From the NCBI GenBank assembly GCA_965230045.1, contig OZ245940.1:5075961-5139960 (forward strand): 64,000 bases of DNA, in the 5' to 3' direction. This stretch comes from Bacteroidales bacterium. Its GTDB lineage: Bacteria; Bacteroidota; Bacteroidia; Bacteroidales; WRLA01. The notes below the pieces were generated by a model. That model saw only the letters and a list, made by a program, of their open reading frames with translations, made no database searches and had not been told where the DNA came from. The position numbers and the translations under genes are program-made. Below, in pieces: positions 43,686-60,356 of the stretch (positions are counted from its first letter, which is position 1; the number at the start of each line of letters is the position of its first letter).

Positions 43686-46600
43686 ATGAGAAAAAATTAT
43701 TTACTCCTATTGGCAGTTTTTCTTGGAATGACAATTACTGCCTTTTCCCAAAGCAAACCCACATCTTTTACCAATGAAATTTTAAAGCAGGACCGGCAAA
43801 TACTGGATCTGAAAATTAAAAGCCCTGCATACGAAATAGTCCGGCACAGAGGAAATATACCCGGACAGCAAATTATCTGCTCGGGCATACAATTGCCTGC
43901 ACAATCAGGTTATCCGGATATTCCGGTGTACAGCAAAAGGATACTTGTGCCCAAAGGCGCTGATGTTTCCATCCGCTATGAGATCATAAAACAGCATACG
44001 GTCAGTGATATTGACCTGGCTCCGGCACCACAAATTCCTTTCGATACAGATACGGTGATGGTTTATAAGCGCAATAATGCTGTTTATCAAACAAATGCAT
44101 TTTTCCCGGAAGAAATTGCACGCATTTCCCAAAATCAGGGCATGGGCGGCTATGATACCCGCATTTTAAACTGGGCGCCCTTTCGTTTTAATCCCGTAAC
44201 AGGAGAGTTGCAGGTGATTGATGAAATCCGTATCCAAATAAATTTCGCGGGAGGAAATGGCTCCTACCGTAGCAGCAAACACAGCAGTGCCATTTGGAAC
44301 AACATTTTGGCATCGCAGGTGCTAAACCCCGAAAACCTTGTGAAAAGCAACAAAAACGCAAATCAACGGGCTGAAGGTTATGAGTACCTGCTTGTAATTC
44401 CCAACGATACGGCCTTTCGCGTTTGGGCCGACACACTGGCACGTTTCCGCAACGAACAAGGCATAAAAACCGGTATTGTTACACTTGACGAAATCGGCGG
44501 CAACACCTCATCAGCCATTGAAGCTTATCTTGTTAATGCTGTGAACAACTGGGAAATCCCACCGGCAGCGGTCCTTTTTATGGCCGATTACGGTACAAGC
44601 GCCGACAACCGCATCATTTCACCGGTTTATGATAATTATTGCATCAGCGATAACCTTATGGCCGATTTTGATAATGACGGGCTGCCGGAAATTGCAACGG
44701 CACGCATGACAGCCCGTGATGCCGGACAACTCGCAGAAATGGTGCGCAAAGCCATTAATTATGAGCGCAATCCGGTAATGGATGACTCTTTTTACGATAA
44801 ACCGGTTACAGCATTGGGCTGGCAAACAGAACGCTGGTTCCAGATCTGCAGCGAAGCAATTTCAGGATATTTCAGCAATTCGGGCAAAAATCCCGTGCGC
44901 ATCAATGATGTGTATGAAGGAAACCCAAACAACGATCCCTGGTCAACATCATCCAACACCTGGACGATCTTAAACACTTTTGGCCCTGCAGGTTTAGGCT
45001 ATATTCCTTCGCAGCCTTCAGAACTGGGCGGTTGGTATGGCGGAACGGCCGATAAAGTAAATGAAGCGCTCAATGAAGGGACTTTTATGCTGGTACACCG
45101 TGACCACGGTGGCGTTGATGGCTGGGGCGAACCCAATTACGACCAAACGGATATACGGAGAGGACTGAACGGTAACGAAAAACTGCCCTTTATTTTTTCC
45201 ATCAACTGCCTGACCGGCAAATTCAATGTAGGCGGCGATTGTTTTGCAGAAACCTTCCACCGCGACCCTGCACGTGCCTTAGGAATTATTGCAGCAACAG
45301 AAGTATCCTATTCCTTTGTAAACGACACTTATATGTGGGGCATGATGGATTATATGTTCCCTGATTTCCTTCCCGAAACGGGCGAAAACGGAGCACCCAA
45401 TCTCTATCCCGCATTTGCCAATGTTTCCGGTAAATATTTCCTCGAAGCCTCATCATGGCCCTGGAACGAAAACAATAAGGAAGTCACTTATATGCTGTTC
45501 CATCATCATGGCGATGCGTTCCAGCAATTGTTCTCTGAAGTGCCTGCCCAGATCACCTCAACAGCTCCGGAGCGGATTACCGATACGGCAACACGAATCC
45601 AAATCACGGCACCCGAAGGCTGCCGCATCGGAATCAGCCATAACGGAAACTATATCGCGCATCACATCTCAACAGGTGGCGATCAATGGGTTGTTATTCC
45701 GCAACAAGAGGAAGGAACAGTGCTTACAGCCACAATAAGCGGCCCCAATTACCAGCGCAAGCAGCACAGTATTCAGGTAGTGCCCAATAACGGCCCTTTT
45801 CTTGTTTGTAAAGATTTTGAATGGCCTAATGGTCAATTGGAAGCAGGCAAGAGTAGCTTATGGACCCTGAAACTGGAAAATATCGGCTTTGCTGCTTCCA
45901 GTAATATTACCCTCAATTTCAGTACGGATATGCCGGAAGTAAGCCTGAGCTATGATCCGGTTGAAATCCAAAACCTGGATCAGGACGCTTTTATTGAGCT
46001 TGAAAACATACTGGAATTTACAGCAGATTGCGAAATTACAGACGGCACTTCCGTACCGCTTACCATCAGCATCAGCTCCGATGAGCACAGCCGCGAGCAG
46101 CAAGTTCAGATTACCGTTCATGCGCCATCCATGCAATTTGAACCTTTTGGTGTAAGTGAACTGGACGGAAATACCAACAATTGGCTGGAACCCGGCGAAT
46201 CGGGCATGCTCAGCCTTTTGATTTCCAATGAAGGATCCGCGCCATTGCATTCAGTTGCCGGAACATTTTCTTTTATCCAAAATATTCCATCACTGGAAAT
46301 TACCAGCATTATAGAGCCTTCTGAAAGTGTGCAAGCCGGAACCACCGACACCATTAAGGTATTTTTTGATGTAGCTCCTTTTGTTGCCGAAGGAACGGAA
46401 TTCGGTTTGGAAGTTGTGATTAGCGGTGATTGTGCCTATGAAATGAGAGATACCGTCGCGGTACAGATTGGCCGGAAAAACAGCCTGATTATTGATTTGG
46501 ACCGCAACCATAATTCCGGAGACTCCATCATACAAAGCCTCACACATTTGGGTTATACGGCAGAAATTGTTCGCGAATGGCCCCTGGATCTATCGGAATA

Positions 46601-47873
46601 CCAAAGTGTTTTTGTTTGCATCGGCATGTTTGGCAGCAATGATGTCCTTACACTGAATGAGGGCGCGGAACTGGCAGAGTATGTCGAAAACAACGGGAAC
46701 CTGTATCTGGAGGGCGGCGATTTCTGGGTGTTTAACCCAAAAACGGATGTGCATCCCTTATTCCATATCGAAGGACTGGAAGATGGCTTTGATGACCTGG
46801 GAGAAGTTGCTGCAACCTATGGCGCATTTACCGAAGGTATGGACTTTAATTATACGGGCGATGTCCGCTGCGTGGATCGTATTAAGCCCATCGACGGGGC
46901 AAAAGCAGTCTTCTATAATCCTGAATGGACATATTTTACTACCGTTACCTACGAGTCGGATAAGTACCGGACCATCGGCAGCGTATTTGAATTTGGTGGC
47001 CTCGAAAACGCTGAAGAACCCTCAACCCGCGATGAGCTCATGCGGCGTTATATGACGTTTTTCGGCATCCTGCAACGTCCTGATGCACCGGCAATGCCCG
47101 CTGGCGACACAGATATCTGCGCCGGCCAGCAAAGCGAATACAGCATACCCGAAGTAAACGGAGCAACGGCTTATGAATGGAGAATTGTTCCTGAAGATGC
47201 GGCCACCTTCGAAATGAATGGGAATTCTGTGCAGGCAAGCTGGAACGAGAACTTCTCAGGAACAGCATCTTTATTTGTTTATGCACTGAAAGATGGCGTA
47301 GCCGGAGCGGCTTCCGAACTGCTTGAAATCAATGTAAACCCATTGCCGGAAGCACCCATGCAGCCCATTGGAACGGACAGCCTGATATGGAGAAATGATG
47401 TTTTGCAGGCAAAATATTTCCTGCCGCAGGCCAATGATCTAATTTGGAAAATCGAACCGGAAAATGCTGCAACCTACGAAATGACCGGGGACAGTCTCTT
47501 GCTTACGATTGCAGACAGCTATACAGGCGAACTGTTCCTGTCCGCAGCAGCCAGCAATGAATGCGGCCAAAGTGCCTTCGGAGAAAGCCTCAAAGTAACG
47601 ATACTTTCGAGCCTTGGCGTGTTTGCACCCGAAAAAACGGACTGGAACATATATCCTAATCCGGCCACAAAAGTTGTTTACCTCAAATCATCCAACGCTA
47701 CAAATGCTGTAATAAAGATCTATTCGATGAACGGAAGCCTACAGGCACAGTTTGAAATGCAGGCACAACAAGAAATACCACTGGATGTCAGCAATTTAAA
47801 TTCCGGATTATACTTGCTTGAAATTATTACAGATTCCGGTGTACTTAATAAACGACTGATCATCAACAGGTAA
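43686..47873 (+). CDS. Peptidase C25 (gingipain family) multidomain protein with T9SS C-terminal sorting domain; paralogue of 39648..43568
   Basis: His and Cys contexts are MLVHRDHGGVDGWGEP and FIFSINCLTGKFN. It is collinear with the preceding protein (for example FRNEQGIKTGIVTLDEIGGNT against FRNQQGILTGVVKVTDIGGNT). CTD is IYPNPATKVVYL...GLYLLEII. Confidence 0.8.
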   Translation: MRKNYLLLLAVFLGMTITAFSQSKPTSFTNEILKQDRQILDLKIKSPAYEIVRHRGNIPGQQIICSGIQLPAQSGYPDIPVYSKRILVPKGADVSIRYEIIKQHTVSDIDLAPAPQIPFDTDTVMVYKRNNAVYQTNAFFPEEIARISQNQGMGGYDTRILNWAPFRFNPVTGELQVIDEIRIQINFAGGNGSYRSSKHSSAIWNNILASQVLNPENLVKSNKNANQRAEGYEYLLVIPNDTAFRVWADTLARFRNEQGIKTGIVTLDEIGGNTSSAIEAYLVNAVNNWEIPPAAVLFMADYGTSADNRIISPVYDNYCISDNLMADFDNDGLPEIATARMTARDAGQLAEMVRKAINYERNPVMDDSFYDKPVTALGWQTERWFQICSEAISGYFSNSGKNPVRINDVYEGNPNNDPWSTSSNTWTILNTFGPAGLGYIPSQPSELGGWYGGTADKVNEALNEGTFMLVHRDHGGVDGWGEPNYDQTDIRRGLNGNEKLPFIFSINCLTGKFNVGGDCFAETFHRDPARALGIIAATEVSYSFVNDTYMWGMMDYMFPDFLPETGENGAPNLYPAFANVSGKYFLEASSWPWNENNKEVTYMLFHHHGDAFQQLFSEVPAQITSTAPERITDTATRIQITAPEGCRIGISHNGNYIAHHISTGGDQWVVIPQQEEGTVLTATISGPNYQRKQHSIQVVPNNGPFLVCKDFEWPNGQLEAGKSSLWTLKLENIGFAASSNITLNFSTDMPEVSLSYDPVEIQNLDQDAFIELENILEFTADCEITDGTSVPLTISISSDEHSREQQVQITVHAPSMQFEPFGVSELDGNTNNWLEPGESGMLSLLISNEGSAPLHSVAGTFSFIQNIPSLEITSIIEPSESVQAGTTDTIKVFFDVAPFVAEGTEFGLEVVISGDCAYEMRDTVAVQIGRKNSLIIDLDRNHNSGDSIIQSLTHLGYTAEIVREWPLDLSEYQSVFVCIGMFGSNDVLTLNEGAELAEYVENNGNLYLEGGDFWVFNPKTDVHPLFHIEGLEDGFDDLGEVAATYGAFTEGMDFNYTGDVRCVDRIKPIDGAKAVFYNPEWTYFTTVTYESDKYRTIGSVFEFGGLENAEEPSTRDELMRRYMTFFGILQRPDAPAMPAGDTDICAGQQSEYSIPEVNGATAYEWRIVPEDAATFEMNGNSVQASWNENFSGTASLFVYALKDGVAGAASELLEINVNPLPEAPMQPIGTDSLIWRNDVLQAKYFLPQANDLIWKIEPENAATYEMTGDSLLLTIADSYTGELFLSAAASNECGQSAFGESLKVTILSSLGVFAPEKTDWNIYPNPATKVVYLKSSNATNAVIKIYSMNGSLQAQFEMQAQQEIPLDVSNLNSGLYLLEIITDSGVLNKRLIINR

Positions 47874-47874
47874 G

Positions 47875-47987
47875 AAAGTGACAAGTGCGAAAGTGACAAG
47901 TGCGAAAGTGCGAAAGTTTAAAGTGCAAAGTCCACTTTCCCACTTTCACACTTTCCCACTTTCACACTTTCAATCTCTCACCTTTCC
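47875..47987. repeat. Hexamer-repeat hairpin unit R1, flanking the 3' end of the four-helix-bundle gene
   Basis: (GTGACAAGTGCGAAAGT)n, then the core GTTTAAAGTGCAAAGTCC (47916-47933), then (CACTTTCMCA)n. The left and right arms are imperfectly complementary. Confidence 0.85.
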
Positions 47988-48320
47988 TATAAGCCCCGCG
48001 ATAATTTTCGATGTTTCTTCGGCCAGGGCAAAAAGCTTGTCGAAGTCCTTTTCTGTAATTTTGTTTAATTCTTTCGCCAGATAGAGCATTGAACGTACTT
48101 CGCCGCATGAACCTTTAGCTACGGACAAAAAATAGCGGAATTCTTTGGTGCTTTTTCGTTCAAAACCTTCGGCTATATTGTTCATCACGGTAACCGAAGC
48201 CCGCTGTATCTGATCCTTAAAGCCAAAATCCCTGCTTTCCTCAAATAAATGATATACCAAAACCGCAAGTTCTTTAGATTTCTGCCAGGCGATAATATCC
48301 TCAAATCTGTTTATAAGCAT
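47970..48320 (-). CDS. Four-helix-bundle protein (23S rRNA intervening-sequence protein / Avd-like family)
   Basis: 116 aa. The motifs IIAWQKSKELAVLVYHL...FKDQIQRASVTVMNNIAEGFERKSTKEFRYFLSVAKGSCGEVRSMLYLA match this family as I remember it. Confidence 0.8.
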   Translation of the reverse strand: MLINRFEDIIAWQKSKELAVLVYHLFEESRDFGFKDQIQRASVTVMNNIAEGFERKSTKEFRYFLSVAKGSCGEVRSMLYLAKELNKITEKDFDKLFALAEETSKIIAGLIGKVRD

Positions 48321-48338
48321 CGTTTTTATTTTTTATGG

Positions 48339-48503
48339 CAAGTGCGAAAGTGACAAGTGCGAAAGTGACAAGTGACAAGTACGAAAGTGACAAGTGCGAA
48401 AGTGCGAAAGTTTAAAGTGCAAAGTCCACTTTCACAGTTTCACACTTTCCCACTTTCATACTTTCATACTTTCCCACTTTCAAACTTTCCCACTTTCACA
48501 TTC
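48339..48503. repeat. Hexamer-repeat hairpin unit R2, 5' flank of the four-helix-bundle gene, overlapping the rnr 3' end
   Basis: Same architecture and core as R1 (GTTTAAAGTGCAAAGTCC at ~48409-48427), with longer arms. Confidence 0.85.
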
Positions 48504-50660
48504 ATCCCCAACCAAAGCCAGGTCAATTTTGCGTGCATTGACATCCACATTTTTTACCTGCACATTCACCTCATCGCCGATTTTGTAGGATTTATGATGA
48601 TGGTGGCCTGTTACCTGATAGTTGTCTTCATCAAGATAATAGTAATCGTCATCAAGGTCCTGCATGCGGATCATACCTTCGCAGAAGCTTTCTTTCAGTT
48701 CCACAAAAACGCCCCATTTGCTTACGCCACTAATTATGCCGCAATATTTTTGCCCGACTTTATCGGCAAGATATTCGGCCTGTTTGTATTTCACGGAGGC
48801 GCGTTCGGCATCGGTGGCGGCGCGTTCCATATCGGAGCTGTGGTCGCACATTTCTTCCAGGCTGGATCGGTCGAGGTATTTGCCTTTATGGAGATAAGCC
48901 CATACCAATCGGTGCACCAAAAGGTCGGGATACCGCCTGATGGGCGATGTAAAATGTGTATAATGCTTGAAACCCAGGCCGTAATGGCCAATATTTTCGG
49001 TAGAATAAACCGCTTTGGCCATCGCACGCAAAGTCATGGTTTCGATCAGGTTTTGTTCCCCGCGGCCTTTTACGCTGGTCAGTAGCTTATTCAAACTTTG
49101 ATTGAGTGCTTCCTGACCAAAGAAATCAATTTTATAACCAAACTTGCCACATAATTTGCTCAGGCTGGCCAGTTTTTCGCCATTGGGCTCATCGTGGATA
49201 CGGAAAACAAAAGGCTTGGGCTTGTTTCCGCGTGCCACCCCAAACATCTGTGCAATGGTTTTATTGGCCAGCAGCATAAATTCTTCTACCAACTCGTGCG
49301 ATTCGTTATGCTCGCGAACATACACATCCACGGGTTTTTTATCATCATCAAGGATAAAGCGCACTTCATTGGATTCCATATTGATGGAGCCTTTTTCAAA
49401 ACGCATTTTCCGCAGTTTTTGCGCCAGGCCATGCAGTAGCAAGAGTTCCTCTTTAAAAGTATCGTTTTCGTCATTTCCGTTGATGACCTCCTGCACTTCC
49501 TCATAGGTATATCTCCGGTCAGAATGAATCACCGAGCGGCAAACCCATTTGTTTCTGACTTTCATTTCTTCGTCCAGCTCCAGCATCACCGACATGGCAA
49601 AACGATCTTCTTTGGGGACCAGCGAACACAAGCCATTCGAAAGCACTTCGGGCAGCATGGGCACAACGCGATCGACCAGATAAACGGATGTAGCACGGTG
49701 ATAGGCTTCTTTGTCGATGGCGGTTCCCGGCTGCACAAAATGCGACACATCGGCAATATGCACGCCCACAACTACATTTCCGTTGGGCAGCTTTTCGATG
49801 GACAAGGCATCGTCAAAGTCTTTTGCATCTTTTGGGTCGATGGTAAATGTGGTCAGGCGCTGAAACTTCTCCCGGCTTTCGTAGGCATCCATAGGGATTG
49901 TGGACGGAAGATTTGCTGCTTCATCCAGTACTTCCTGAGGGAACTCGATGGGCAAGTCATATTCCATCAAAATACTTTGCATTTCCACATTATTATCGCC
50001 CGGTTTACCCAACACTTTCACCACTTTTGCAAATGGATTGCGGGCGTGATCGGGCCAGTCGGTAATTTCCGCAATGACTTTATCCCCGTTTTTTGCATCG
50101 AGCAAATCCTGCTGATGCACAAAAAGATCAAACGGCATGCTTTGCTGATCGGGAATCATGAAGGAATAATTATGCTTGATGTCCATAATCCCCACAAACT
50201 GTGTTTTATTGCGTTTGATCACCTCAATAATCTGTCCTTCGTGCTTTCGGTTGCGCCTTTTAGGAAACAGGAAAACCTTGACCCAATCTCCGTGCAGTGC
50301 CTTTCCCGTATTGCCTTGCGCAATAAAAATATCTTCATCGAAACTGTCGGAAACAACATAAGCTTTTCCGGTTTGCTTCATATCAACTTTGCCTTCCACA
50401 TAAGTTTTCGGGCTATATTTTGTGATATACTTTGCATGCAGTTTGTATTTGCCGCGCTTTTCTTCCACTAGGATATTCCCAATAAGCAGTTCATCCAAAA
50501 TATCCCGCACAAGCTGTCGTGCGTCTTTATCCATGATGCCCAACTGTTTGCTTATTTGCCTGTAATTCATCCCTTTAAAAGGACTGCGCGCCATCATGCC
50601 AATGATTTGCTCTTTAAGGCTTACTCCTCTGGATTCCGATTTGCGGCGTTTTTTTCTCAT
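48480..50660 (-). CDS. rnr: Ribonuclease R
   Basis: 726 aa with an RNB catalytic domain (FTIDPKDAKDFDDALS, HYGLGFKHYTHFTSPIRRYPDLLVHR) and a C-terminal S1 domain. Confidence 0.9.
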   Translation of the reverse strand: MRKKRRKSESRGVSLKEQIIGMMARSPFKGMNYRQISKQLGIMDKDARQLVRDILDELLIGNILVEEKRGKYKLHAKYITKYSPKTYVEGKVDMKQTGKAYVVSDSFDEDIFIAQGNTGKALHGDWVKVFLFPKRRNRKHEGQIIEVIKRNKTQFVGIMDIKHNYSFMIPDQQSMPFDLFVHQQDLLDAKNGDKVIAEITDWPDHARNPFAKVVKVLGKPGDNNVEMQSILMEYDLPIEFPQEVLDEAANLPSTIPMDAYESREKFQRLTTFTIDPKDAKDFDDALSIEKLPNGNVVVGVHIADVSHFVQPGTAIDKEAYHRATSVYLVDRVVPMLPEVLSNGLCSLVPKEDRFAMSVMLELDEEMKVRNKWVCRSVIHSDRRYTYEEVQEVINGNDENDTFKEELLLLHGLAQKLRKMRFEKGSINMESNEVRFILDDDKKPVDVYVREHNESHELVEEFMLLANKTIAQMFGVARGNKPKPFVFRIHDEPNGEKLASLSKLCGKFGYKIDFFGQEALNQSLNKLLTSVKGRGEQNLIETMTLRAMAKAVYSTENIGHYGLGFKHYTHFTSPIRRYPDLLVHRLVWAYLHKGKYLDRSSLEEMCDHSSDMERAATDAERASVKYKQAEYLADKVGQKYCGIISGVSKWGVFVELKESFCEGMIRMQDLDDDYYYLDEDNYQVTGHHHHKSYKIGDEVNVQVKNVDVNARKIDLALVGDECESGKV

Positions 50661-50788
50661 GATTTCATTTTTTCCTGCGCATTTATTAAAATACAGCAGA
50701 TATTTGTAACAAAGCTAACAAAAATAAGCACGCAACCGGCCTTTGCCCGATGCAAGCATAAACGAAGCGGTTTAGACCGGCATTATGC

Positions 50789-50825
50789 AAAAAAAAGCCA
50801 CATCCCGATAAAACCGGAATATGGC
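50789..50825 (-). terminator. Rho-independent terminator downstream of the ABC-efflux operon
   Basis: The minus strand reads GCCATATTCCGG-TTTTA-TCGGGATGTGGC followed by TTTTTTTT. The stem includes G:U pairs. Confidence 0.5.
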
Positions 50826-50866
50826 ACGAATCAAAACCTCTAAAATAATTATAAGCTAAAAAAAAC

Positions 50867-51979
50867 TTATCCTTCCTGAACGCCCATCGGTTTGCCCGAA
50901 TTAGGCACTTTCACTTTATCGTCTTTAGAAATACCTTCCAGGACTTCGATCTGGATACCATCAGAGAGCCCGGTTGTTAAATATCGTTTTTCGTATTGCT
51001 GCGGACCGATTTCCACCTCCACAAAAGCGGAATCTTTATCATCAAACTGCAAGAGGCTTTCTTTGATGCTCAGAACTTTATCATGGCGCTCGAGCACGAT
51101 ATCGGCATTGGCCGAATAATTTGCACGCACAAAAACGCTGTCGCGCAGGCTGACATCCGCCCTGATTTTAAACTGAATGGCTCCGTTTTCTTCGACTCCT
51201 TTTGGCGAGATATGCTCCAGAACTGCTTCAAAAGTCTGATCTTCCAGCGCGCCAATGGTGAGGATAAGCGGCATACCCTCCCTAATCTTGCCCACTTCGG
51301 ATTCATCAATATTTCCTTCAAAAATCATGTCGTTCATATCGGCCACGGTGGCGATGGTTGTGCCATCATTAAAGGTATTGCTTTCGATTACGGAATTACC
51401 GATTTTGACAGGAATTTCGAGCACCATTCCGTCAATTGTGGAGCGAATCAGGGTATTGCTTACTTCGCCGGCATCGCGTTTCTGGCCTTCGCGGATCAGC
51501 TCCAGATTGCCTTTGGCTGCTGCAACTTCCTGTACTGCATTGTTGTAGGTCACCTCAAAATCTTCAAAATTGCTAATGGAAATTACATCCTTTTCGAGCA
51601 GTTCCTTATTGCGCTGATAATCCTTTTCCGCATCTTTCAGCTGGATTTTTGCCCGTTCCAGACGCGATTCAGCTTCGTTGAGCTGCACCATGTTCGGAAT
51701 AATCTTCACCCGCGCAATCAGGTCCCCTTTTCGCAACTGGTCGCCTTCTTCTACAAAAAGCGCATCAATAATTCCGGAAACCTGAGGTTTGATCTGGATT
51801 TCCTGACGGGGAATTACCGAACCGGTTGCTGTGGTTTTCTTAACGATATCGGTAACTTCAGGAGTCAGCGATTCAAAAACAAGCGGTTTGTCCTGCGATT
51901 TTTGAAACAGGTAGTAAATTGTGTAGGCAAATACCCCAACCAGTACGAGGGCAAAGAAAATCTTCAGAAACTTTTTCAT
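50867..51979 (-). CDS. Efflux transporter periplasmic adaptor subunit (HlyD/MacA-like)
   Basis: N-terminal TM segment, biotinyl/lipoyl-like hairpin and a coiled coil (LNEAESRLERAKIQLKDAEKDYQRNKELLE), with beta-barrel domains. Confidence 0.8.
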   Translation of the reverse strand: MKKFLKIFFALVLVGVFAYTIYYLFQKSQDKPLVFESLTPEVTDIVKKTTATGSVIPRQEIQIKPQVSGIIDALFVEEGDQLRKGDLIARVKIIPNMVQLNEAESRLERAKIQLKDAEKDYQRNKELLEKDVISISNFEDFEVTYNNAVQEVAAAKGNLELIREGQKRDAGEVSNTLIRSTIDGMVLEIPVKIGNSVIESNTFNDGTTIATVADMNDMIFEGNIDESEVGKIREGMPLILTIGALEDQTFEAVLEHISPKGVEENGAIQFKIRADVSLRDSVFVRANYSANADIVLERHDKVLSIKESLLQFDDKDSAFVEVEIGPQQYEKRYLTTGLSDGIQIEVLEGISKDDKVKVPNSGKPMGVQEG

Positions 51980-52009
51980 AATGTGCTGTCTTGATATTGT
52001 TTTTGACTT

Positions 52010-53275
52010 TTATTCATCGCGTAAAGCATCAATGGGTTTTATGCTCACCGCCCTTCGGGCAGGAATCAGTCCGGCGATCATTCCCGAAAAGATCAGGACA
52101 ATCAATGCCGTCATTGCTTTTTGGAAATCCACTTCCGGGTTCAGGAACATACCGGATTCGCCGCCCGATTGCAGAATCATCATATTCACTCCTTCCAGGG
52201 CTGCCACTCCAAGCACTAAACCTGTGTAACCTGCAATTGTAGTCAGCATAACCGATTCTGTGATAATCTGGCTAATGACCATCCAGGGCGTTGCGCCAAT
52301 AGCCCGTTGAACGCCAATTTCTTTAGTTCGTTCTTTTACAACAATAAGCATGATATTGCTCACACCGATGACGCCGGCCAGAAGCGTTCCAATGCCCACA
52401 ATCCATATCAGGCCATTGATACCCATAAAAAGCGTGGTCATTTTTTTGTATTGATTTTCCAGGTTAAACGATCCTACAGCCCTTTCATCATCGGGATGAA
52501 TGCTGTGCCTTTGGCGCATTAAAGCCTTAACTTTTGGCTCCACCTCCGAAACCGTGGCTCCTTTAACCGTTATTGAATACCAGCCAACAATATTGCCATA
52601 ATTATAGGTTTTCTGCAATGTTGTAAATGGTATAAAAATCTGTTGGTTATCATTATCGGCCTGATGGCCCGATTTCTTGGATTTAAACAAACCCACTATT
52701 TTAAAATATACACCATTTATCCGCATGCTTGTCCCGATGGGATCTTCATCCGGTTCATACATTTCGTTATAAACACGCTGGCCGATCACGGCAACTTTTC
52801 TTTTATCCTGAATATCAAACTCATTAATGAAGCGGCCTTTGACCATATCCACCGGATCGATCTTATAGAAATCGGGATAATCGCCCTGAATCCGGAAAGC
52901 GCCGGTACGTTCGTTGCGCACAACATTATTATTACCTTCGCTGCTCCAGCCCTGCAAGCGCGGCGCGATATACTCTACCTCAGGAATATTATCGATAATG
53001 GCCTGAGTATCATCATTATCAAAATTATAATGCCGTCCACGCTTAAAACCCTTATAGGGCATGGTAGTGTTCTGCGTCCACATAAAAAAGGAATTGGTTG
53101 CCATATCGCCCATTTCCTGTGTAACGCCATTGTTCAGCCCCTTGCCGGAACCCAGCATGATGATCAGCATAAAAATCCCCCAAAACACGCCAAAAGCCGT
53201 GAAGAAAGTCCGCCACTTGTTTTTGCTCAGTGCGTTAAAAATTTCCTGCCATGAATCTGTATCAAATATTCTCAT
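52010..53275 (-). CDS. ABC transporter permease, FtsX/MacB-like
   Basis: MacB_PCD-like periplasmic domain between TM1 and TM2, and a C-terminal FtsX domain (VKERTKEIGVQRAIGATP). Confidence 0.85.
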   Translation of the reverse strand: MRIFDTDSWQEIFNALSKNKWRTFFTAFGVFWGIFMLIIMLGSGKGLNNGVTQEMGDMATNSFFMWTQNTTMPYKGFKRGRHYNFDNDDTQAIIDNIPEVEYIAPRLQGWSSEGNNNVVRNERTGAFRIQGDYPDFYKIDPVDMVKGRFINEFDIQDKRKVAVIGQRVYNEMYEPDEDPIGTSMRINGVYFKIVGLFKSKKSGHQADNDNQQIFIPFTTLQKTYNYGNIVGWYSITVKGATVSEVEPKVKALMRQRHSIHPDDERAVGSFNLENQYKKMTTLFMGINGLIWIVGIGTLLAGVIGVSNIMLIVVKERTKEIGVQRAIGATPWMVISQIITESVMLTTIAGYTGLVLGVAALEGVNMMILQSGGESGMFLNPEVDFQKAMTALIVLIFSGMIAGLIPARRAVSIKPIDALRDE

Positions 53276-53287
53276 TTTGTTGGGGCT

Positions 53288-54520
53288 TTATTCTTCTTTT
53301 AATGCTTCAACAGGACGGATGGATGCGGCACGGCGCGCGGGAACAAAGCCGGCCAGTGCCCCGGCAAAAACCAGGATAGCCGTTGCTCCCAGCGCAACAT
53401 TTATATTGATTTCGGGATTTGCAAAATAGTCGATGTCGGGCAGTATTTTTCCAATAAACTCCAACAATACTACCCCCAGAACAAGTCCGATATAGCCTGC
53501 AAAAGCTGTGATCAGAACCGATTCCTGCAATACCAGCCCGATAATGGAGCCCGGCGTTGCGCCCATGCTTTTGCGTATGCCTATTTCACGGGTACGTTCT
53601 TTTACCACAATCATCATGATATTGCTCACGCCCACAATTCCGGCAATGATGGTTCCTATCCCAATAATCCAGATAAAGAAGCGAATGCTGGCAAACAGGC
53701 TCATAAACTGCTGAAAATTCTCCACATTATTCCAGATATGCACCGCGCGCTGGTCTTCCGGAGCAAAATGATGGCGCCGGGACATTTTATCGCGTATTTC
53801 GGTGACCATTTCCTGCGAACGTTCCACACTGGCATCGCCGGTAGTCATGGAGATATTATTTACATAATTTCCTCCGTTAAAAACCATTTGTGCAGTGCTT
53901 ACAGGGATATAAATCCTACTCATGTCGCGGTCGCCGCCCGGATCTTCATAGACGCCTACGACCTGAAAAGGCACGCCACTAACACGAATATATTTGCCAA
54001 TGGGATCTTCTCCGTTTTTGAAAAGGGATTCGGCTACGATGCGCCCAATGGAAGTAACTTTTCGGTTTTTATCGACATCAATATTATTCAGGAAACGGCC
54101 ATTTTTGACTTCAACGGTTTCTACTTCAGCATAATCGGGCAGGCAGGCAAAAATATCAAAGCTGCCATACTCCTTACCATACGACAAAGTATTATTGCGC
54201 CAGATGCGGAAACGGGAGGAAATAAACCCGACACCTTTTACCTTGCTTATTTCTTCGTAATCTTTATTGGTAAAACGGATAAAACGGCCGGGTTTATAAC
54301 CTTCATGAGCCATGGAAGTAATCCCCTGATTTACCCAAATGGTGTTTTCCGCATCGCCCTCAAAATCCTTGCGCACGCCATTTTCCAGTCCGTAGCCGGA
54401 ACCGAGAAGGATCACCAGCATAAAAATGCCCCATGCAACGCTGAATCCCGTGAGGAAAGTCCTCAGTTTATTCTTGTTGATGGTTTCAAAAATCTCCTGC
54501 CATTTATCCAGATCAAACAT
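53288..54520 (-). CDS. ABC transporter permease, FtsX/MacB-like (paralogue of the previous gene)
   Basis: Same architecture as the previous permease (VKERTREIGIRKSMGATP). Confidence 0.85.
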   Translation of the reverse strand: MFDLDKWQEIFETINKNKLRTFLTGFSVAWGIFMLVILLGSGYGLENGVRKDFEGDAENTIWVNQGITSMAHEGYKPGRFIRFTNKDYEEISKVKGVGFISSRFRIWRNNTLSYGKEYGSFDIFACLPDYAEVETVEVKNGRFLNNIDVDKNRKVTSIGRIVAESLFKNGEDPIGKYIRVSGVPFQVVGVYEDPGGDRDMSRIYIPVSTAQMVFNGGNYVNNISMTTGDASVERSQEMVTEIRDKMSRRHHFAPEDQRAVHIWNNVENFQQFMSLFASIRFFIWIIGIGTIIAGIVGVSNIMMIVVKERTREIGIRKSMGATPGSIIGLVLQESVLITAFAGYIGLVLGVVLLEFIGKILPDIDYFANPEININVALGATAILVFAGALAGFVPARRAASIRPVEALKEE

Positions 54521-54531
54521 AGGCTTGGGGT

Positions 54532-55260
54532 TTAAGCTACAGCAAATTCGTTGGCCAAAGCTTTATCTTTAAATTTCTTCAGTTCACCATTGATGATGTT
54601 TTCGCTGATCAGGCCGTCGCGTAGCTTGATGATGCGTTCGGTGCGTGCCGCGATATCCGCTTCGTGCGTTACAATGATGATGGTAATTCCTTGTTGATGA
54701 ACCTTTTGAAGCACATCCATGACTTCGTAACTGGTAGTAGTATCCAGCGCACCGGTTGGCTCATCAGCCAGAATTACTTTAGGCTTGCTGATCAGGGAAC
54801 GTGCAATGGCGAGGCGCTGTTTCTGCCCACCGGAAAGTTCATTGGGCAAGTGATGTGCCCATTCGCGCAATCCCATCATTTCAAGATATTCCAGGGCAAT
54901 GCGGTTGCGCTTTTTACGGCTGACTTTCTGATAATAAAGCGGAAGCGCCACATTTTCCATGGCGTTTTTAAAGGAAATCAAATTAAACGACTGGAAAATA
55001 AAGCCCAGCATTTCGTTGCGGTATAGGGCAGCTTTCTTCTCGCTCATATTACGGATCAGCTTACCGTCGAGGTGATAGCTTCCGGTATCGTAATTATCGA
55101 GAATTCCGAGGATATTGAGCAGAGTGGATTTCCCTGAGCCGGAGGAGCCCATAATACTGACCATTTCTCCCTTTTCAATTTCGAGGTCAATTCCCTTCAG
55201 CACGTGGAGAGAATTTTTTCCTGTACGGTAGGATTTGTTAATATCCTGAAGTTTTATCAT
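54532..55260 (-). CDS. ABC transporter ATP-binding protein (MacB/LolD-like)
   Basis: Walker [10 protein letters not shown], signature LSGGQKQR and Walker B ILADEPT. The start is taken at MIKLQD. Confidence 0.9.
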
Positions 55261-55419
55261 AATGCACACCTTAATCTGGGCATGCTGAATGCCATGTTCG
55301 TGCCATACTTACAACTTATTGATTAAAAAACACTTAAGATTTTCCAGCTGCACGTTTATGGACAAAAGGTGTTCGCAGCTTAACAGGTGAGTGTACGGTT
55401 TTGAACAGGGGTGAGCGTG

Positions 55420-55553
55420 GGAGTGATGAGTGTGAAAGTGACAAGTAGGAAAGTGACAAGTGCGAAAGTTTAAAGTGCAAAGTCCACTTTCAACTTTCAT
55501 ACTTTCCCACTTTCCCACTTTCCCACTTTCCCTCTTTCAATCTCTCAACTTTC
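55420..55553. repeat. Hexamer-repeat hairpin unit R3
   Basis: Same architecture as R1, with the core AGTTTAAAGTGCAAAGTCCACTTTC. Confidence 0.85.
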
Positions 55554-55886
55554 CTATAAGCCCCGCGATAATTTTCGATGTTTCTTCGGCCAGGGCAAAA
55601 AGCTTGTTGAAATCCTTTTCTGTTATTTTGTTAAGTTCTTTCGCCAGGTAGAGCATTGAACGCACTTCGCCGCATGAGCCTTTAGCCACGGATAAAAAAT
55701 AGCGGAATTCTTTGGTGCTTTTTCGTTCAAAACCTTCGGCTATATTGTTCATCACGGAAACCGAAGCTCGTTGTATCTGATCTTTAAAGCCAAAGTCCCT
55801 GCTTCCTCAAACAGATGATATACCAAAACCGCAAGTTCTTTGGATTTCTGCCAGGCGATAATATCTTCAAATCTGTTTATTAGCAT
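55537..55886 (-). pseudogene. Four-helix-bundle protein gene, frameshifted copy
   Basis: Near-identical to 47970..48320. The C-terminal 72 aa differ at 2 positions. One T is missing from a T run (CCCTGCTTCCTC at ~55800-55806 against CCCTGCTTTCCTC in copy 1), which breaks the frame after MLINRFEDIIAWQKSKELAVLVYHLFEE. Confidence 0.8.
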
Positions 55887-55903
55887 CGTTTTTATTTTTT
55901 ATG

Positions 55904-56033
55904 GCAAGTGCGAAAGTGACAAGTAGGAAAGTGACAAGTAGGAAAGTTTAAAGTGCAAAGTCAACTTTCAACTTTCCCACTTTCACACTTTCATACTTTC
56001 ACACTTTCACACTTCCCCACTTTCCCACTTCCT
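55904..56033. repeat. Hexamer-repeat hairpin unit R4
   Basis: Same architecture as R1. The 5' junction CGTTTTTATTTTTTATGGCAAGTGCGAAAGTGAC is identical to the one at R2. Confidence 0.85.
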
Positions 56034-56756
56034 TTAATCCTTAATACAGCGGACAGAGCGCGCGCTTATACGAGAATAATCTGTAATACCGGTATGATAT
56101 TTATTAAAATGCAGGCCCCACGCCTTTGTTCCTGCTACCGTACTTGACCAATAAGAACCATCAGATCCACCAAAATCGAAATAGTCTCTATAGCTGCGGC
56201 TCCCGGCCAATGGCAGTTTGAGCGGCGTGGCAAATTGGTCGGTTATGCCATGGCTGAACCAGCTTAAGCGCTCAGCCTCCCACTCTGCTATGGTTGGTAA
56301 CCGGTAGCCGCTTGGGCATGGATTGTTCTTTCCATTAACACCCTGCCATAAATCGTCGTTTTTCGGGCTACGCCAGTCGTAATATTGCACCTCATAATCA
56401 AAAGATATAAATTTTCCATGGCCGGGTGTATCACTATTACTTAACTCCATTGTAAAACCGGAAGTATGCTTTTCATGTCCATCGGCAACCCGCCCCCACT
56501 GGTATAAATCACCATAAGCTGCTTCATCAGTAAAATTTGTTGCATCTTGTGAAGCTCCCAGATTTCGATCCATCCAGGTTTTGCCTGTTGCATAGTTGGT
56601 AACATCGGAAAAGACCTCAATATCTGGTTCTGATGGAGGCTTAATATTTGCATCATCCGTATCATCGTCATTGCATGAAGCTAATACAAAGCTCACCGCA
56701 ACAATAATAACCAAAATCCAAACCAGCTTTTTTTTATTCATTTCCGAAATTTTCAT
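56034..56756 (-). CDS. FISUMP-domain lipoprotein (Fibrobacter succinogenes major paralogous domain)
   Basis: Lipoprotein signal ending in ASC. Motifs TWMDRNLGA, YGDLYQWGR and NPCPSGYRLPTIAEWE. Confidence 0.75.
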   Translation of the reverse strand: MKISEMNKKKLVWILVIIVAVSFVLASCNDDDTDDANIKPPSEPDIEVFSDVTNYATGKTWMDRNLGASQDATNFTDEAAYGDLYQWGRVADGHEKHTSGFTMELSNSDTPGHGKFISFDYEVQYYDWRSPKNDDLWQGVNGKNNPCPSGYRLPTIAEWEAERLSWFSHGITDQFATPLKLPLAGSRSYRDYFDFGGSDGSYWSSTVAGTKAWGLHFNKYHTGITDYSRISARSVRCIKD

Positions 56757-56826
56757 TCAAATATATTACAAAAGTAAAAAAATACCAGAACACATTTGTA
56801 TAGAATAATTATTTTTAATAACAAGC

Positions 56827-56945
56827 CCGAAAGCTAAAAGTGCAAAGTCCACTCTCAAACTTTCGCACTTTCAACTTTCATACTTTCAACTTTCCCACTT
56901 TCACACTTTCCCACTTTCCCACTTTCACACTCCCCCACTCTCTCA
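56827..56945. repeat. Solo partial hairpin unit R5 (core plus pyrimidine arm only), with no four-helix-bundle gene
   Basis: AAAGTGCAAAGTCCAC followed by CTTTC-type hexamer repeats. The purine-rich left arm is missing. Confidence 0.8.
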
Positions 56946-59900
56946 AAGAACCAATATTTTAACCGACCCAACAGATTCATCGGATTCCAGTTTCAATAAA
57001 TAAATACCTGTTCCCAAAGCCTGCAGACCATCCAACGAAATGTAATTTTCTCCTATCCGGAAATCCTGCTCCACGATTTTTGCGAGAAACCGACCCGTAA
57101 AGTCAAAAACGGAAAGCCTGTATTTTGCGGGAATTTCGGAATAAAAACGAAGTCTGGAGTTTTCATCTATTGGATTTGGCGAAACCCTTACTTCCAGAGC
57201 CGATTTAATTTCTTTCTCATTGATACTTGTTTCGATTTTAATAGCACGGCTTCCAATACGCACATCATCAATATAAACGCCTTCGGTTGGCCGTTGCCAG
57301 GTACTGACAAAAGTCAGGCGCAGACGGATACTATCAGTAGGTTGATAAAATGGCGACAAATCGTATTTGTAAGGCATCCAGTCATTACCCGTACTCAAAA
57401 CGGGCAGGGCTCCCCCGCTCCCAAAATAATCATGTTTGATCCAGTTTTTATTGTCTTTTGAGGTTTCCACAATCAACCCATTTGTACCATAATTTGGCAA
57501 AAGATACCAGGCGTAAAATTCCAGCTCGGGATTCAATCCTGCCAGAAATGGGGGCGAATCGAGCTTGGCCCACATGCCTTTTTCGTAATGCAGCGAATCG
57601 GGATAACCGCAATACCAACTGTGTGTGCCCGAATGCGCCCGATTTGTGCTTATGTGCCAATGATCCAGCCAACCGTGTGGATACCAGCCGTTTTGGCCGT
57701 TTTCCATATTGTCAAAAAAGCCGCTTTTGCCGATGGCCATCTTGAATTTCAAGGGTTCAGTTGTTTTACATGGATGCGTATAGTTGACGTCCACTTCCGG
57801 GAAATCCGGGCTTTGGCCTTCTGATGCTTCCGCGACAAAATAGAGCGTATCGGCCGAATGCGCCGAAATATCTACTGCCTCAAAAAGAGAGGGACGGAAC
57901 TCCAAACGAGCTGAAGGGCAATCAAGTTCAACATCCATGGCCTGCGCATCGGCACTACCGGCATTGGTAAGTACCAGACCAAAGGAATGGGCGCTTCCGG
58001 ATTCCAGGATTTCTGCTCCATCGGCCGTAAAATATCCCGCCAAACGTATATCGGGCTGTACCAAACGGAAATTGACCGGAAAACTGTAATAATGCTCATC
58101 GCCCCAACGCAGATGCATACGGAATGCCAGGATTTTATTGTTTTCCACAGGCTCAATTTGTTTTAATGTAAAAGCATCCTTCAGAAAAGCAGAATCCTTA
58201 AAACCAGCAAGTTCAAGTACACTGTCCTGAACGGCCCAGCGGTCGTTTTCACTGGTGATGCTCAGGCGCACATTTGGGATGCTGTCATTGCTGCTGCTTT
58301 TGAGCCACAGGTTGATGCGGCCATCTTCATAACAATGCAAATCATGTGTATAAAACTGCGTAAAATATTTACTGATCCAGGGTTTGGCTTCATCCGCTTT
58401 TACAGGCAATTCCTTTTGAAAGGGAATAAAATCTTTGGCTGTGATCGTAATCAAAACGGGTTCCGGATTTTCCATATTCGGGATATCGAGTTGAAACAAA
58501 CCCGAAGCATCGCTATTTGCTGTATAATAAATTCCATTTTGCTGCATCAGGCAGAGGCGGGCTGAGATAAAATCAGTATGTGGATTTGTGATGCGAAACC
58601 TTAACGAACCTCCACCGGAAGGAATGGAATCGGGAAGGCCATCGAGCGCAAATTCGCGCACAGGGTTCGCATAAACCGGCATCTCAGGATCGCCCATCAG
58701 GTTGACTTCGTACATGCACCAGCGATACACATTTTCCTGCTGCGCATAGGGAATAAATTCGGATTTGGCATGAGCCAGGATTTCCCCGGCATGATTGAAG
58801 CCTTCATCGAAAATCTGGCGGTAAAAAGCCTGATTGAGCAAATCGCTATAACCGTATTCCGGATTTCCCGGGCTGCCCCAACCGTAGCGGCTGTTGCCGA
58901 AGAATGCCACAGCACCTCCATTGGGATTCGCCAGCCAGTTTTCAGCAATACATTCATAATCAAAGGCTGCCGGCCAGCAACCAATCGAAAAAACAGTGCT
59001 GTTGCGCGGACCGTTATCCAATTGATCCACATATTCCTGACTGATGCTGAAATCGCCGGCGCCCATGCTGGTGTACCATGCGTGCCCATTGTGATTGATG
59101 AAATGGTAGCCTTCGCTTAAAGCCTGTGTTACTGTTTCTTCATTTTCATTTTCATCGGCTTCGTAAAGTTTGGTAATCGGGTCATAATATTCCGGAATAT
59201 ACAGACTGTCAATAAGATTCAGCCCCAAACCGCTGTTTGTATAGGGATCGTCCCAAAGTATTTCTGCGAGAAAAAGCATTTTATCAAGAAATCCCGATTG
59301 TGGGGGATTCTTCTCAAAAGCGATTATTTTGCGTGCCATTGCCCCGGCCTGAAGCGCATCATCGGCGGGCAGCCTACCCACAAAAACCTCATAATCAAGA
59401 GAAACATCATCCGATACTTCACCGTAAATTCCATTGCCATTGGCGTCCCAGCTGCCATCCAGATCGGCAAAATACATATCGCACGGAATATTGTTCTGAT
59501 CTTCAGGTCCCCATTGATATTCACAGTCCATAGCCCAAACGTGGCGGATGGGCATTTGCAGGCTGTCGCCCACCAGCAAAACATATTTCAACCCACCTTG
59601 CTCATATTTTTGTTTGATAAAATTCCTGATTTTGGCCGCTTCATCCTCACCTTCGGTTGCAGGATAAATCTCTTCCGTAGTATAAAGCGCCGGATTCAGC
59701 CCTTTTTGTTTTTTCCAAAGCAGCAGGCTGTCCATGGAAGGCGCAAGTTCTGCAGAAGTAATGATGATGTATTCCTGATTTCCTTCCGGAGAAGATTTCA
59801 AATCAGTATCCTGAATTTTTATACTTCCCGGCAAATAAATTTTGGGGTTGATATTCGATTGGACAATCTGCGGTTTTCCTTTTAAAATCAATCGGATTTT

Positions 59901-60356
59901 GGAATGAAAAAGCATGATGTTTTCAGCAGGCCGGTATTGCAGGGGATAAATCTTTAACAACCGACCCGCGCCTTGCTGCACGATCGTTGCCGGATAAAGA
60001 TCAGCAGAATTATAAACCGCTTCCTCCTTCAGGATTTTTTCCTGTTGTTGACGAACGGACAGGGGCAATGGTTTTTGTGCCGGCCAAATGGGATAATCCA
60101 GATGAATCTGCTCTGTTTCCAAAATACGAATATCCGTTAACTCCATTCCTTCAGGGATTAAATACTGTTTTACAGGCAATTGCGGATGTCCCGGCAGGTC
60201 GTGCAAATAAAAACCGGAAAGCATAATGTGCGCATAATGATCGCGCTGTTCGATTTTTAGTTCGTCCTTTTGAAAATTCAGCTTTACTTCGGTTTGCGCC
60301 AAGCAAAAGAATGGCTGAGCCAATACTATGAGAATGATTAAAATTCTGTTCATCAT
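56943..60356 (-). CDS. Peptidase C25 (gingipain family) multidomain protein with T9SS C-terminal sorting domain
   Basis: His and Cys contexts are FINHNGHAWYTS and VFSIGCWPAAFD. It resembles the 36146..39598 protein (IPCDMYFADLDGSWDANGNG against IPADLYYSALDGTWNDDGDN). CTD is VSPNPIDENS...GIYLLKLE. Confidence 0.8.
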   Translation of the reverse strand: MMNRILIILIVLAQPFFCLAQTEVKLNFQKDELKIEQRDHYAHIMLSGFYLHDLPGHPQLPVKQYLIPEGMELTDIRILETEQIHLDYPIWPAQKPLPLSVRQQQEKILKEEAVYNSADLYPATIVQQGAGRLLKIYPLQYRPAENIMLFHSKIRLILKGKPQIVQSNINPKIYLPGSIKIQDTDLKSSPEGNQEYIIITSAELAPSMDSLLLWKKQKGLNPALYTTEEIYPATEGEDEAAKIRNFIKQKYEQGGLKYVLLVGDSLQMPIRHVWAMDCEYQWGPEDQNNIPCDMYFADLDGSWDANGNGIYGEVSDDVSLDYEVFVGRLPADDALQAGAMARKIIAFEKNPPQSGFLDKMLFLAEILWDDPYTNSGLGLNLIDSLYIPEYYDPITKLYEADENENEETVTQALSEGYHFINHNGHAWYTSMGAGDFSISQEYVDQLDNGPRNSTVFSIGCWPAAFDYECIAENWLANPNGGAVAFFGNSRYGWGSPGNPEYGYSDLLNQAFYRQIFDEGFNHAGEILAHAKSEFIPYAQQENVYRWCMYEVNLMGDPEMPVYANPVREFALDGLPDSIPSGGGSLRFRITNPHTDFISARLCLMQQNGIYYTANSDASGLFQLDIPNMENPEPVLITITAKDFIPFQKELPVKADEAKPWISKYFTQFYTHDLHCYEDGRINLWLKSSSNDSIPNVRLSITSENDRWAVQDSVLELAGFKDSAFLKDAFTLKQIEPVENNKILAFRMHLRWGDEHYYSFPVNFRLVQPDIRLAGYFTADGAEILESGSAHSFGLVLTNAGSADAQAMDVELDCPSARLEFRPSLFEAVDISAHSADTLYFVAEASEGQSPDFPEVDVNYTHPCKTTEPLKFKMAIGKSGFFDNMENGQNGWYPHGWLDHWHISTNRAHSGTHSWYCGYPDSLHYEKGMWAKLDSPPFLAGLNPELEFYAWYLLPNYGTNGLIVETSKDNKNWIKHDYFGSGGALPVLSTGNDWMPYKYDLSPFYQPTDSIRLRLTFVSTWQRPTEGVYIDDVRIGSRAIKIETSINEKEIKSALEVRVSPNPIDENSRLRFYSEIPAKYRLSVFDFTGRFLAKIVEQDFRIGENYISLDGLQALGTGIYLLKLESDESVGSVKILVL

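Follow-up and report, generated by a model that had tools for sequence, protein, structure and literature searches.

A four-helix-bundle gene bracketed by tandem-repeat hairpins between protein-coding genes of a Bacteroidales bacterium, in a layout akin to ORF-bearing 23S rRNA intervening sequences

Introduction

The closest described systems to the locus analyzed here are the intervening sequences (IVS) of 23S rRNA that carry an open reading frame (ORF), as in Coxiella burnetii, Leptospira and Xanthomonas. The Coxiella burnetii IVS is excised by RNase III and has a 28-bp stem, with heptamer repeats beside its ORF (Warrier et al., 2016, PMC4990558). This ORF, S23p, is decaying and probably not translated, and it has a poor Shine-Dalgarno sequence (PMC4990558). 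Short tandem words are also described in intergenic arrays, namely GGGAATC in Xanthomonas and Nostoc (Rehm et al., 2015, PMC4692102) and TAACTGA in Beggiatoaceae, Cyanobacteria and Bacteroidetes (MacGregor, 2015, PMC4679880). Neither of the two array papers links its arrays to PF05635 genes.

PF05635 is a very large family that, to our knowledge, has entered print in two settings alone, namely in rRNA intervening sequences and, as the accessory protein Avd, in DGRs. Our literature search found no description of repeat-flanked PF05635 copies outside rRNA, in line with an earlier note on this DNA that knew of no account of such a cassette, and the repeat words of the present locus were found in no paper.

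Here we describe, in a 64,000-nt stretch of DNA from a Bacteroidales bacterium (the window), a PF05635 gene that appears embedded in inverted arrays of short tandem repeats, each flank being predicted to fold as a complete hairpin (unit-gene-unit). The locus is a little-described, extra-ribosomal variant of the ORF-bearing IVS layout. We give about an even chance to the explanation that the cassette is an extra-ribosomal relative of the ORF-bearing 23S rRNA IVS, expressed by read-through, with hairpins that act as RNA and with losses that occur by recombination between repeats.

Results

Architecture of the locus

We compared four genomes, denoted W (the window), F (CAXXFD01), O (OY781097.1) and X (CAXXOX01). 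Repeat units occupy three sites: site A is the junction of a C25 gene and rnr, site B lies between a Fib_succ ORF and an ABC ATPase, and site C lies between a C25 paralogue and the Fib_succ ORF. The features of the window are as follows.

43686..47873, plus strand: C25 (gingipain-family) T9SS protease gene (Pfam Peptidase_C25, Propeptide_C25, Por_Secre_tail)
47874..47931, unstranded: unit A-left purine-rich arm, period 15 (GTGACAA+GTGCGAAA), running into the apex words AGTTTAAAGTGCAAAGTCC (TRF; core match 47915-47939)
47933..47986, unstranded: unit A-left pyrimidine-rich arm (CACTTTCN, period 8) (TRF; hairpin fold)
47970..48320, minus strand: intact PF05635 four-helix-bundle gene, copy A, 116 aa (Pfam; PDB; dN/dS)
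48338..48425, unstranded: unit A-right purine-rich arm and apex (core 48409-48433) (TRF, 48339-48425; core search)
48426..48503, unstranded: unit A-right CACTTTCN arm (TRF, 48426-48500; ORF list)
48480..50660, minus strand: RNase R (rnr), same strand as the cassette A gene and upstream of cassette A (Pfam RNB, CSD2, OB_RNB, S1)
55425..55554, unstranded: unit B-left, with purine arm, apex (55467-55491) and pyrimidine arm (TRF; core search; fold)
55537..55887, minus strand: four-helix-bundle gene copy B, pseudogene (alignment)
55904..56033, unstranded: unit B-right, with purine arm, apex (55945-55969, one mismatch) and pyrimidine arm (TRF; core search; fold)
56034..56756, minus strand: Fib_succ_major-domain lipoprotein-like ORF, 240 aa, same strand as and upstream of cassette B (Pfam PF09603)
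56832..56942, unstranded: site C gene-less half-unit, with apex (3 mismatches), an 11-word CACTTTCN arm and a vestigial purine arm (core search; array arms)
56943..60356, minus strand: C25 paralogue, at whose stop the site C half-unit ends (ORF)

From 60356 down to 47874, every gene lies on the minus strand and all five units are oriented alike. The units are tightly fitted to the ends of host genes. The TAA stop of the C25 gene at 47873 abuts the first repeat word, the left unit beginning at the next base, while the last 8 codons and the stop of rnr (48480-48503) are encoded inside the unit A-right array and unit B-right terminates at the stop of the 240-aa Fib_succ_major ORF. The earlier note had placed the C25 stop at 47873 and the rnr stop at 48480 against or within the units, and both positions match the ORF coordinates. 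The array-supplied C-terminus of RNase R varies: the proteins of W and F end in ...GDECESGKV* (726 aa) and that of X has 720 aa, while outgroup RNase R, which has no array, ends a few residues past the common ...KIDL(A/Q)LV motif. An Rfam scan of 47300-57200 returned no rRNA or other family, the only hits being sub-threshold plant miRNA-precursor hairpins.

An intact and a frameshifted copy of the four-helix-bundle gene

The protein of copy A matches PF05635 (23S rRNA intervening-sequence protein) over residues 7-108 of 116 with 114.8 bits (E 2.7e-33; Pfam gathering cut-off 33.8 bits), and it resembles solved four-helix-bundle pentamers (PDB 2gsc, XCC0516, E 4.6e-13; PDB 2rld, E 8.5e-4). With TRF arrays on either side, the locus is thus, as first described, a 116-aa four-helix-bundle gene bracketed on both sides. 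The last codons and stop of copy A sit in the decayed end of the unit A-left pyrimidine arm. An A-rich leader of Bacteroidota type, CCATAAAAAATAAAAACG, precedes the gene and is conserved in all copies.

The reported recurrence of the ~630-bp cassette was also confirmed, with a second copy at about 55425-56033 whose gene part is 94% identical to that of copy A (20 differences in 337 nt). Copy B has lost one T in a 1-nt deletion (CTTTCC to CTTCC) that breaks the frame and leaves a 72-aa ORF; the same deletion is seen in source-run contigs at single-copy depth. Among the five intact copies, orthologues and paralogues together, dN/dS is 0.00-0.07 at dS values of 0.10-0.52, which indicates that the four-helix-bundle protein is functional and kept by strong purifying selection. 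Close relatives of the copy A protein number more than 8000; beyond the clade, the nearest ones are 70-81% identical and are spread over Bacteroidota.

Repeat units consist of 8- and 15-nt words and fold into long hairpins

On the plus strand, each unit runs from a purine-rich array (period 15) through the apex to the CACTTTCN array (period 8). The purine period is itself composite (7+8), and the TRF periods replace the hexamer repeats that had been proposed. The proposed 25-nt core recurs five times in the window (three times exactly, once with one mismatch and once with three) and is absent from 100/100 shuffles, but it is not a separate module: it consists only of the last two or three degenerate 7-nt words (GAAAGTT TAAAGTG CAAAGTC), at the point where the polarity of the array switches. 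In relatives, the apex varies by a 7-nt indel, in which one word is lost, and by point changes.

Folding agreed with the prediction that each unit can form a long hairpin. The predicted hairpins are long and interrupted, their z-scores lie between -4.7 and -9.5 relative to dinucleotide shuffles, and the energy of unit A-left is -43 kcal/mol on the plus strand and -63.5 kcal/mol on the minus strand. Arm lengths at the same site range from 44 to 269 nt across the four genomes, which indicates that the arrays expand and contract freely by slippage. The two arms of a unit are often very unequal, as in 251 versus 94 nt or 269 versus 70 nt. The latter is the solo unit at site A of genome O (L007, 357-625), where ~17 near-perfect 15-mers GTGGCAAGTGCGAAA make up a 269-nt array facing a 70-nt pyrimidine arm, a large one-sided expansion.

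The source run also contains signs of the array word beyond these sites. The k-mer depth of CACTTTCN (window 48465-48499) reaches up to ~49-fold the single-copy value, and source-run contigs show CACTTTCN arrays joined to two other single-copy flanks (…GAGCGTAGCCGAA…). Together, these two observations make it probable that the W genome holds more CACTTTCN arrays outside the window.

Most hairpins are predicted to be more stable in the gene-sense RNA

We compared the folds of the two strands over the 17 units of the four genomes. The minus-strand RNA, which is the gene-sense strand, folds more stably in 15 of them, and its fold contains more G:U pairs than the plus-strand fold in 15/17 units, with A-C mismatches on the other strand. 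Because the units are orthologous or paralogous, these are not 15 independent events; the strand asymmetry is suggestive of an RNA-level role of the repeat hairpins and does not amount to a formal test. Complementary arrays stand on both sides of the gene, so that inner or outer arms could pair across it, but the minimum-energy fold pairs the units locally: the 661-nt cassette sense RNA is predicted to form two local hairpins flanking the gene (z = -10.9).

A scan for promoters and terminators at the cassette gave no promoter-like or terminator-like site of note, and the Bacteroidota TAnnTTTG motif was not found by eye upstream of the four-helix-bundle ATG. Nor do the hairpins look like intrinsic terminators, the stems being A/U/G-rich and followed by no U tract. 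These results and the conserved A-rich leader point to expression by read-through, in which transcripts of the upstream host gene would extend into the cassette gene, from rnr into copy A and from the Fib_succ ORF into copy B. The better folding of the gene-sense RNA further suggests that the hairpins may serve as long double-stranded processing, insulating or stabilizing elements. They would resemble the RNase III substrates found in rRNA intervening sequences. The very unequal arms are hard to square with a tightly selected hairpin, and site C has no real purine arm.

Three polymorphic sites in a small clade

We scanned one genome per species across 185,579 species with the pattern AAAGTGCAAAGTCMACTYTC and obtained nine loci. 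Four of these are genuine and belong to three related Bacteroidales MAGs; the remaining five are chance matches in coding sequence. A looser apex pattern had 5 matches among 241 million metagenome records, all by chance. Within the three related genomes, the scan places the pattern at sites A, B and C alone. This restriction of the apex to three sites in close genomes is unlike a spreading element.

The three relatives are collinear with the window and are 95% (F), 92% (O) and 91% (X) identical to W, while the identity between X and O is 93.2%; these identities support the tree ((W,F),(X,O)). The state of each site is as follows.

Site A: filled in W, F and X; one unit without the gene in O
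Site B: filled in W (frameshifted), F and O; one unit without the gene in X
Site C: gene-less in W, F, X and O

The one-unit form at site A is also seen in a contig from another sample. Presence/absence polymorphism in relatives, whose lack would have spoken against the cassette, is thus found at two sites, A being reduced to one unit in O and B in X. The units also occur without the gene, site C being gene-less in all four genomes.

In genome F, an IS256-family element (Transposase_mut) sits in the apex or loop of the C25-side unit of site A (L028, 14006-15395), where it separates GTGGACT from TTTGCACTTTAAAC; IS elements are known to target REP-like hairpins.

The nearest outgroup RNase R proteins are 77% and 70% identical. 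In both outgroups, rnr ends without an array and is followed by a Na/Ca exchanger gene, and in the 70% outgroup (a 20-kb locus) the 3' end of the C25 paralogue also has no array. This indicates that the units arose or arrived in the ancestor of W, F, X and O. The outgroups (L042, L043) have the order rnr, Na/Ca exchanger, SSB and C25 paralogue, while in the W clade rnr lies behind an ABC/MacB/HlyD operon instead. The three repeat sites (window 47874-60356) coincide with all three synteny breakpoints relative to the nearest outgroups.

Solo units are chimeras of the two flanking units

The solo units of O at site A and X at site B reveal how the one-unit form is built. Each has the rnr-side or Fib-side outer end together with the apex type of the other unit, and is therefore a chimera of the outer end of the upstream unit (in the sense direction) and the apex type of the downstream unit. 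This places both crossovers inside the regular CACTTTCN array and not at the apex, as predicted by homologous recombination or slippage between direct repeats and not by a site-specific event at the apex. Since the units are direct repeats, they recombine, which homogenizes copies within a genome and also deletes the gene and one unit, leaving a solo unit. On the simplest reading of these alleles, the common ancestor carried both cassettes, and a single loss by recombination between flanking units removed each of them; that they were lost rather than gained rests on parsimony with four genomes.

Signs of exchange between copies are also present in the genes. Between the six gene copies, 9-32 of 339 sites differ. 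The two copies of genome F differ at 9 sites and orthologous pairs at 13-14, informative sites among the copies are mosaic, and apex forms are shared inside a cassette or a genome and not between orthologous units. Altogether, this indicates gene conversion among cassette copies. A four-sequence comparison had suggested that copy A was derived from copy B once O had split off, but this scenario was dropped, since F and X carry copy A.

The earlier note viewed the locus as an insertable intergenic cassette. The block does recur and is polymorphic as one unit, but no insertion step was seen: the cassette ends have no visible target duplication, no integrase or transposase lies within 10 kb in the four genomes except the unrelated IS in F, and no site in these genomes is filled in one and unit-free in a close relative. 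The C25-rnr junction that comes nearest to the "empty" site the note had asked for, the O allele, retains one chimeric unit, again with no target duplication. On the timescale sampled, the cassette is not autonomously mobile.

An integron-like alternative would have a circular gene-plus-unit integrate and excise at the apex, with solo units as empty attachment sites. It would account for a filled state that differs from the solo state by exactly one added gene and one added unit, for the solo units at site C in all four genomes, for the same design at two sites, which implies at least one copying event, and for copies that are more alike than expected of an old duplication. We nevertheless find it improbable, given that both deletion crossovers lie in the CACTTTCN array, that the apex, with its indel variation, is itself composed of repeat words, that site C is never filled, and that parsimony favors losses; the absence of a linked recombinase and the confinement of the apex to three sites in the three related genomes scanned weigh in the same direction. 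A non-autonomous cassette system, in which solo units are landing pads and the gene and a unit are moved or copied by homology-driven exchange, also seems unlikely to us. Were it true, the protein might assist by binding its own words, and the units would drive local genome rearrangement.

Relatives of the gene are also bracketed by complementary arrays

We read five relatives of the gene in context, all with 70-77% identity and in unrelated gene contexts. All five are bracketed by complementary arrays, with the words AAAGTTNN upstream and AACTTTNN downstream, and their layouts are Pu-gene-Py, [hairpin]-gene-Py or Pu-gene-[hairpin]. At a SecA / ArgS junction, in an amidohydrolase operon and in a Segatella hominis DGR, where it lies between bAvd and the reverse transcriptase, the gene has a single arm on either side. 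The relative that lies downstream of a Fib_succ_major gene has a complete hairpin on its upstream side, and the one downstream of tyrS has a complete hairpin on its downstream side.

The unit-gene-unit layout of the window appears to be the fullest form of this spectrum. The possibility raised beforehand, that the flanks are ordinary spacers unrelated to four-helix-bundle genes elsewhere, does not fit these five array-bracketed relatives.

They bear equally on the view that the units are ordinary simple-sequence arrays or hairpins at gene 3' ends (terminators or slippage-prone spacers) with no functional link between gene and repeat. Such a view would sit well with the gene-less unit at site C in all four genomes, the hypervariable array lengths and the apparent CACTTTCN arrays elsewhere in the genome (the ~49-fold k-mer depth and the two other single-copy flanks), and gene-free tandem heptamer/octamer arrays are described in other bacteria (PMC4692102, PMC4679880). 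We consider it rather doubtful all the same: beside the relatives, all five bracketed by complementary related words, the array encodes the gene's own stop and C-terminus, the gene is lost along with a unit, and the units lack the U tract of a terminator.

The Segatella locus calls for a comparison with DGRs. In Segatella hominis and gut metagenomes (L010-L019, gene 3001-3345), a 77%-identical gene with AAAGTTNN/AACTTTNN arms lies inside a DGR, where it stands downstream of a Fib_succ_major target, with the true bAvd on one side and the template/reverse-transcriptase gene on the other. After a further 100 nt comes a gene-less hairpin, and in L012 an IS66 stands in place of the reverse transcriptase. 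Because Segatella has a separate bAvd (PF22296), the PF05635 gene there looks like an inserted cassette. That the window holds a DGR remnant, with the four-helix-bundle gene as Avd and the Fib_succ_major ORF as former target, could be read from this DGR-embedded relative and from the position of cassette B behind a Fib_succ_major ORF. The idea is highly improbable, and we reject it: a reverse transcriptase (RVT) gene is absent from the surrounding ~10 kb in W, F and X, the window contains no template repeat of the Fib_succ ORF, copy A follows rnr and not a DGR target, and Segatella keeps Avd as a distinct gene. The cassette lies directly downstream of a Fib_succ_major gene in three unrelated contexts (window 56034-56756; L030, 10-1428; L010, 1688-2512), and this neighborhood may be due to chance or preferred.

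A further possibility is that protein and repeats form a module in which an oligomer recognizes the words that flank its gene, in RNA or DNA form, and controls neighboring transcripts or DNA. We hold this only tentatively, as having a small but real chance. Strong selection on the protein would be expected under it, periodic words of 8 and 15 nt suit an oligomeric binder, and the words of the closest protein relatives share an AAAGT/ACTTT centre; Avd, a homologue, is a reported nucleic-acid-binding partner of the DGR reverse transcriptase. The binding is nonetheless putative, and the shared words may reflect common descent of the whole cassette. That such a binding-site module controls stability, translation or recombination has a similarly small chance in our view, and it would be compatible with our favored explanation, an extra-ribosomal IVS relative expressed by read-through.

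Discussion

The locus makes a very large protein family more tractable. Two of its sites have naturally occurring filled and solo alleles whose crossovers are mapped, and it presents a PF05635 protein that appears to be under strong selection outside rRNA. It also carries a caution, as such cassettes can look mobile while the polymorphism reflects loss by repeat recombination.

Several known classes of element share features with the cassette. Like REP/BIME elements and the RNase III sites among phage T7 early genes, it places extragenic hairpins in co-directional units, a likeness that is a functional analogy only. REP/BIME hairpins and T7 RNase III sites stabilize or separate mRNAs. Unlike REP/BIME, it has a low apex copy number, no RAYT transposase and far longer stems made of tandem words. 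It also differs from MITE/REP elements in general, having no dispersed copies in our scans, no end duplication and no cognate transposase. Integron attC sites are set apart by the flanks, which encode no integrase, and by crossovers that lie in the array and not at the apex, while a DGR Avd gene would be at odds with the lack of an RVT gene within ~10 kb in W, F and X and of a Fib_succ repeat in the window.

The allelic states recall solo LTRs, since the filled form is repeat-cargo-repeat and the derived form is one chimeric repeat with the crossover inside the repeat. Unlike LTRs, the repeats are 110-350-nt tandem-array hairpins and not retroelement terminal repeats, and there is no sign of an insertion step. 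With the heptamer/octamer arrays (PMC4692102, PMC4679880), the units share short tandem words near stop or start codons and a variable copy number; convergent pairs of those arrays, most of which are transcribed, can form stem-loops as in the window. The words differ, however, and the window arrays bracket one particular gene and disappear along with it.

The ORF-bearing 23S rRNA IVS remain the nearest counterpart. The window locus differs from them in lying between protein-coding genes (C25, rnr, ABC ATPase, Fib_succ) and not in an rRNA helix, and in that each flank is a complete hairpin whereas each IVS flank is one arm of a single stem. Its arms are 40-270 nt of 8/15-nt repeats, compared with the 28-bp stem of Coxiella, and its ORF is under strong purifying selection, in contrast to the decaying Coxiella ORF. 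RNase III processing is established for the Coxiella IVS, whereas for the window cassette we only infer it. These differences are set beside a shared plan. Both the IVS and the window locus carry a PF05635 ORF bracketed by complementary short-tandem-repeat sequences that form long stems in the sense RNA, neither encodes a mobility enzyme, and neither gives its ORF a strong signal of its own, the window gene having no recognizable promoter and the Coxiella ORF a poor Shine-Dalgarno sequence.
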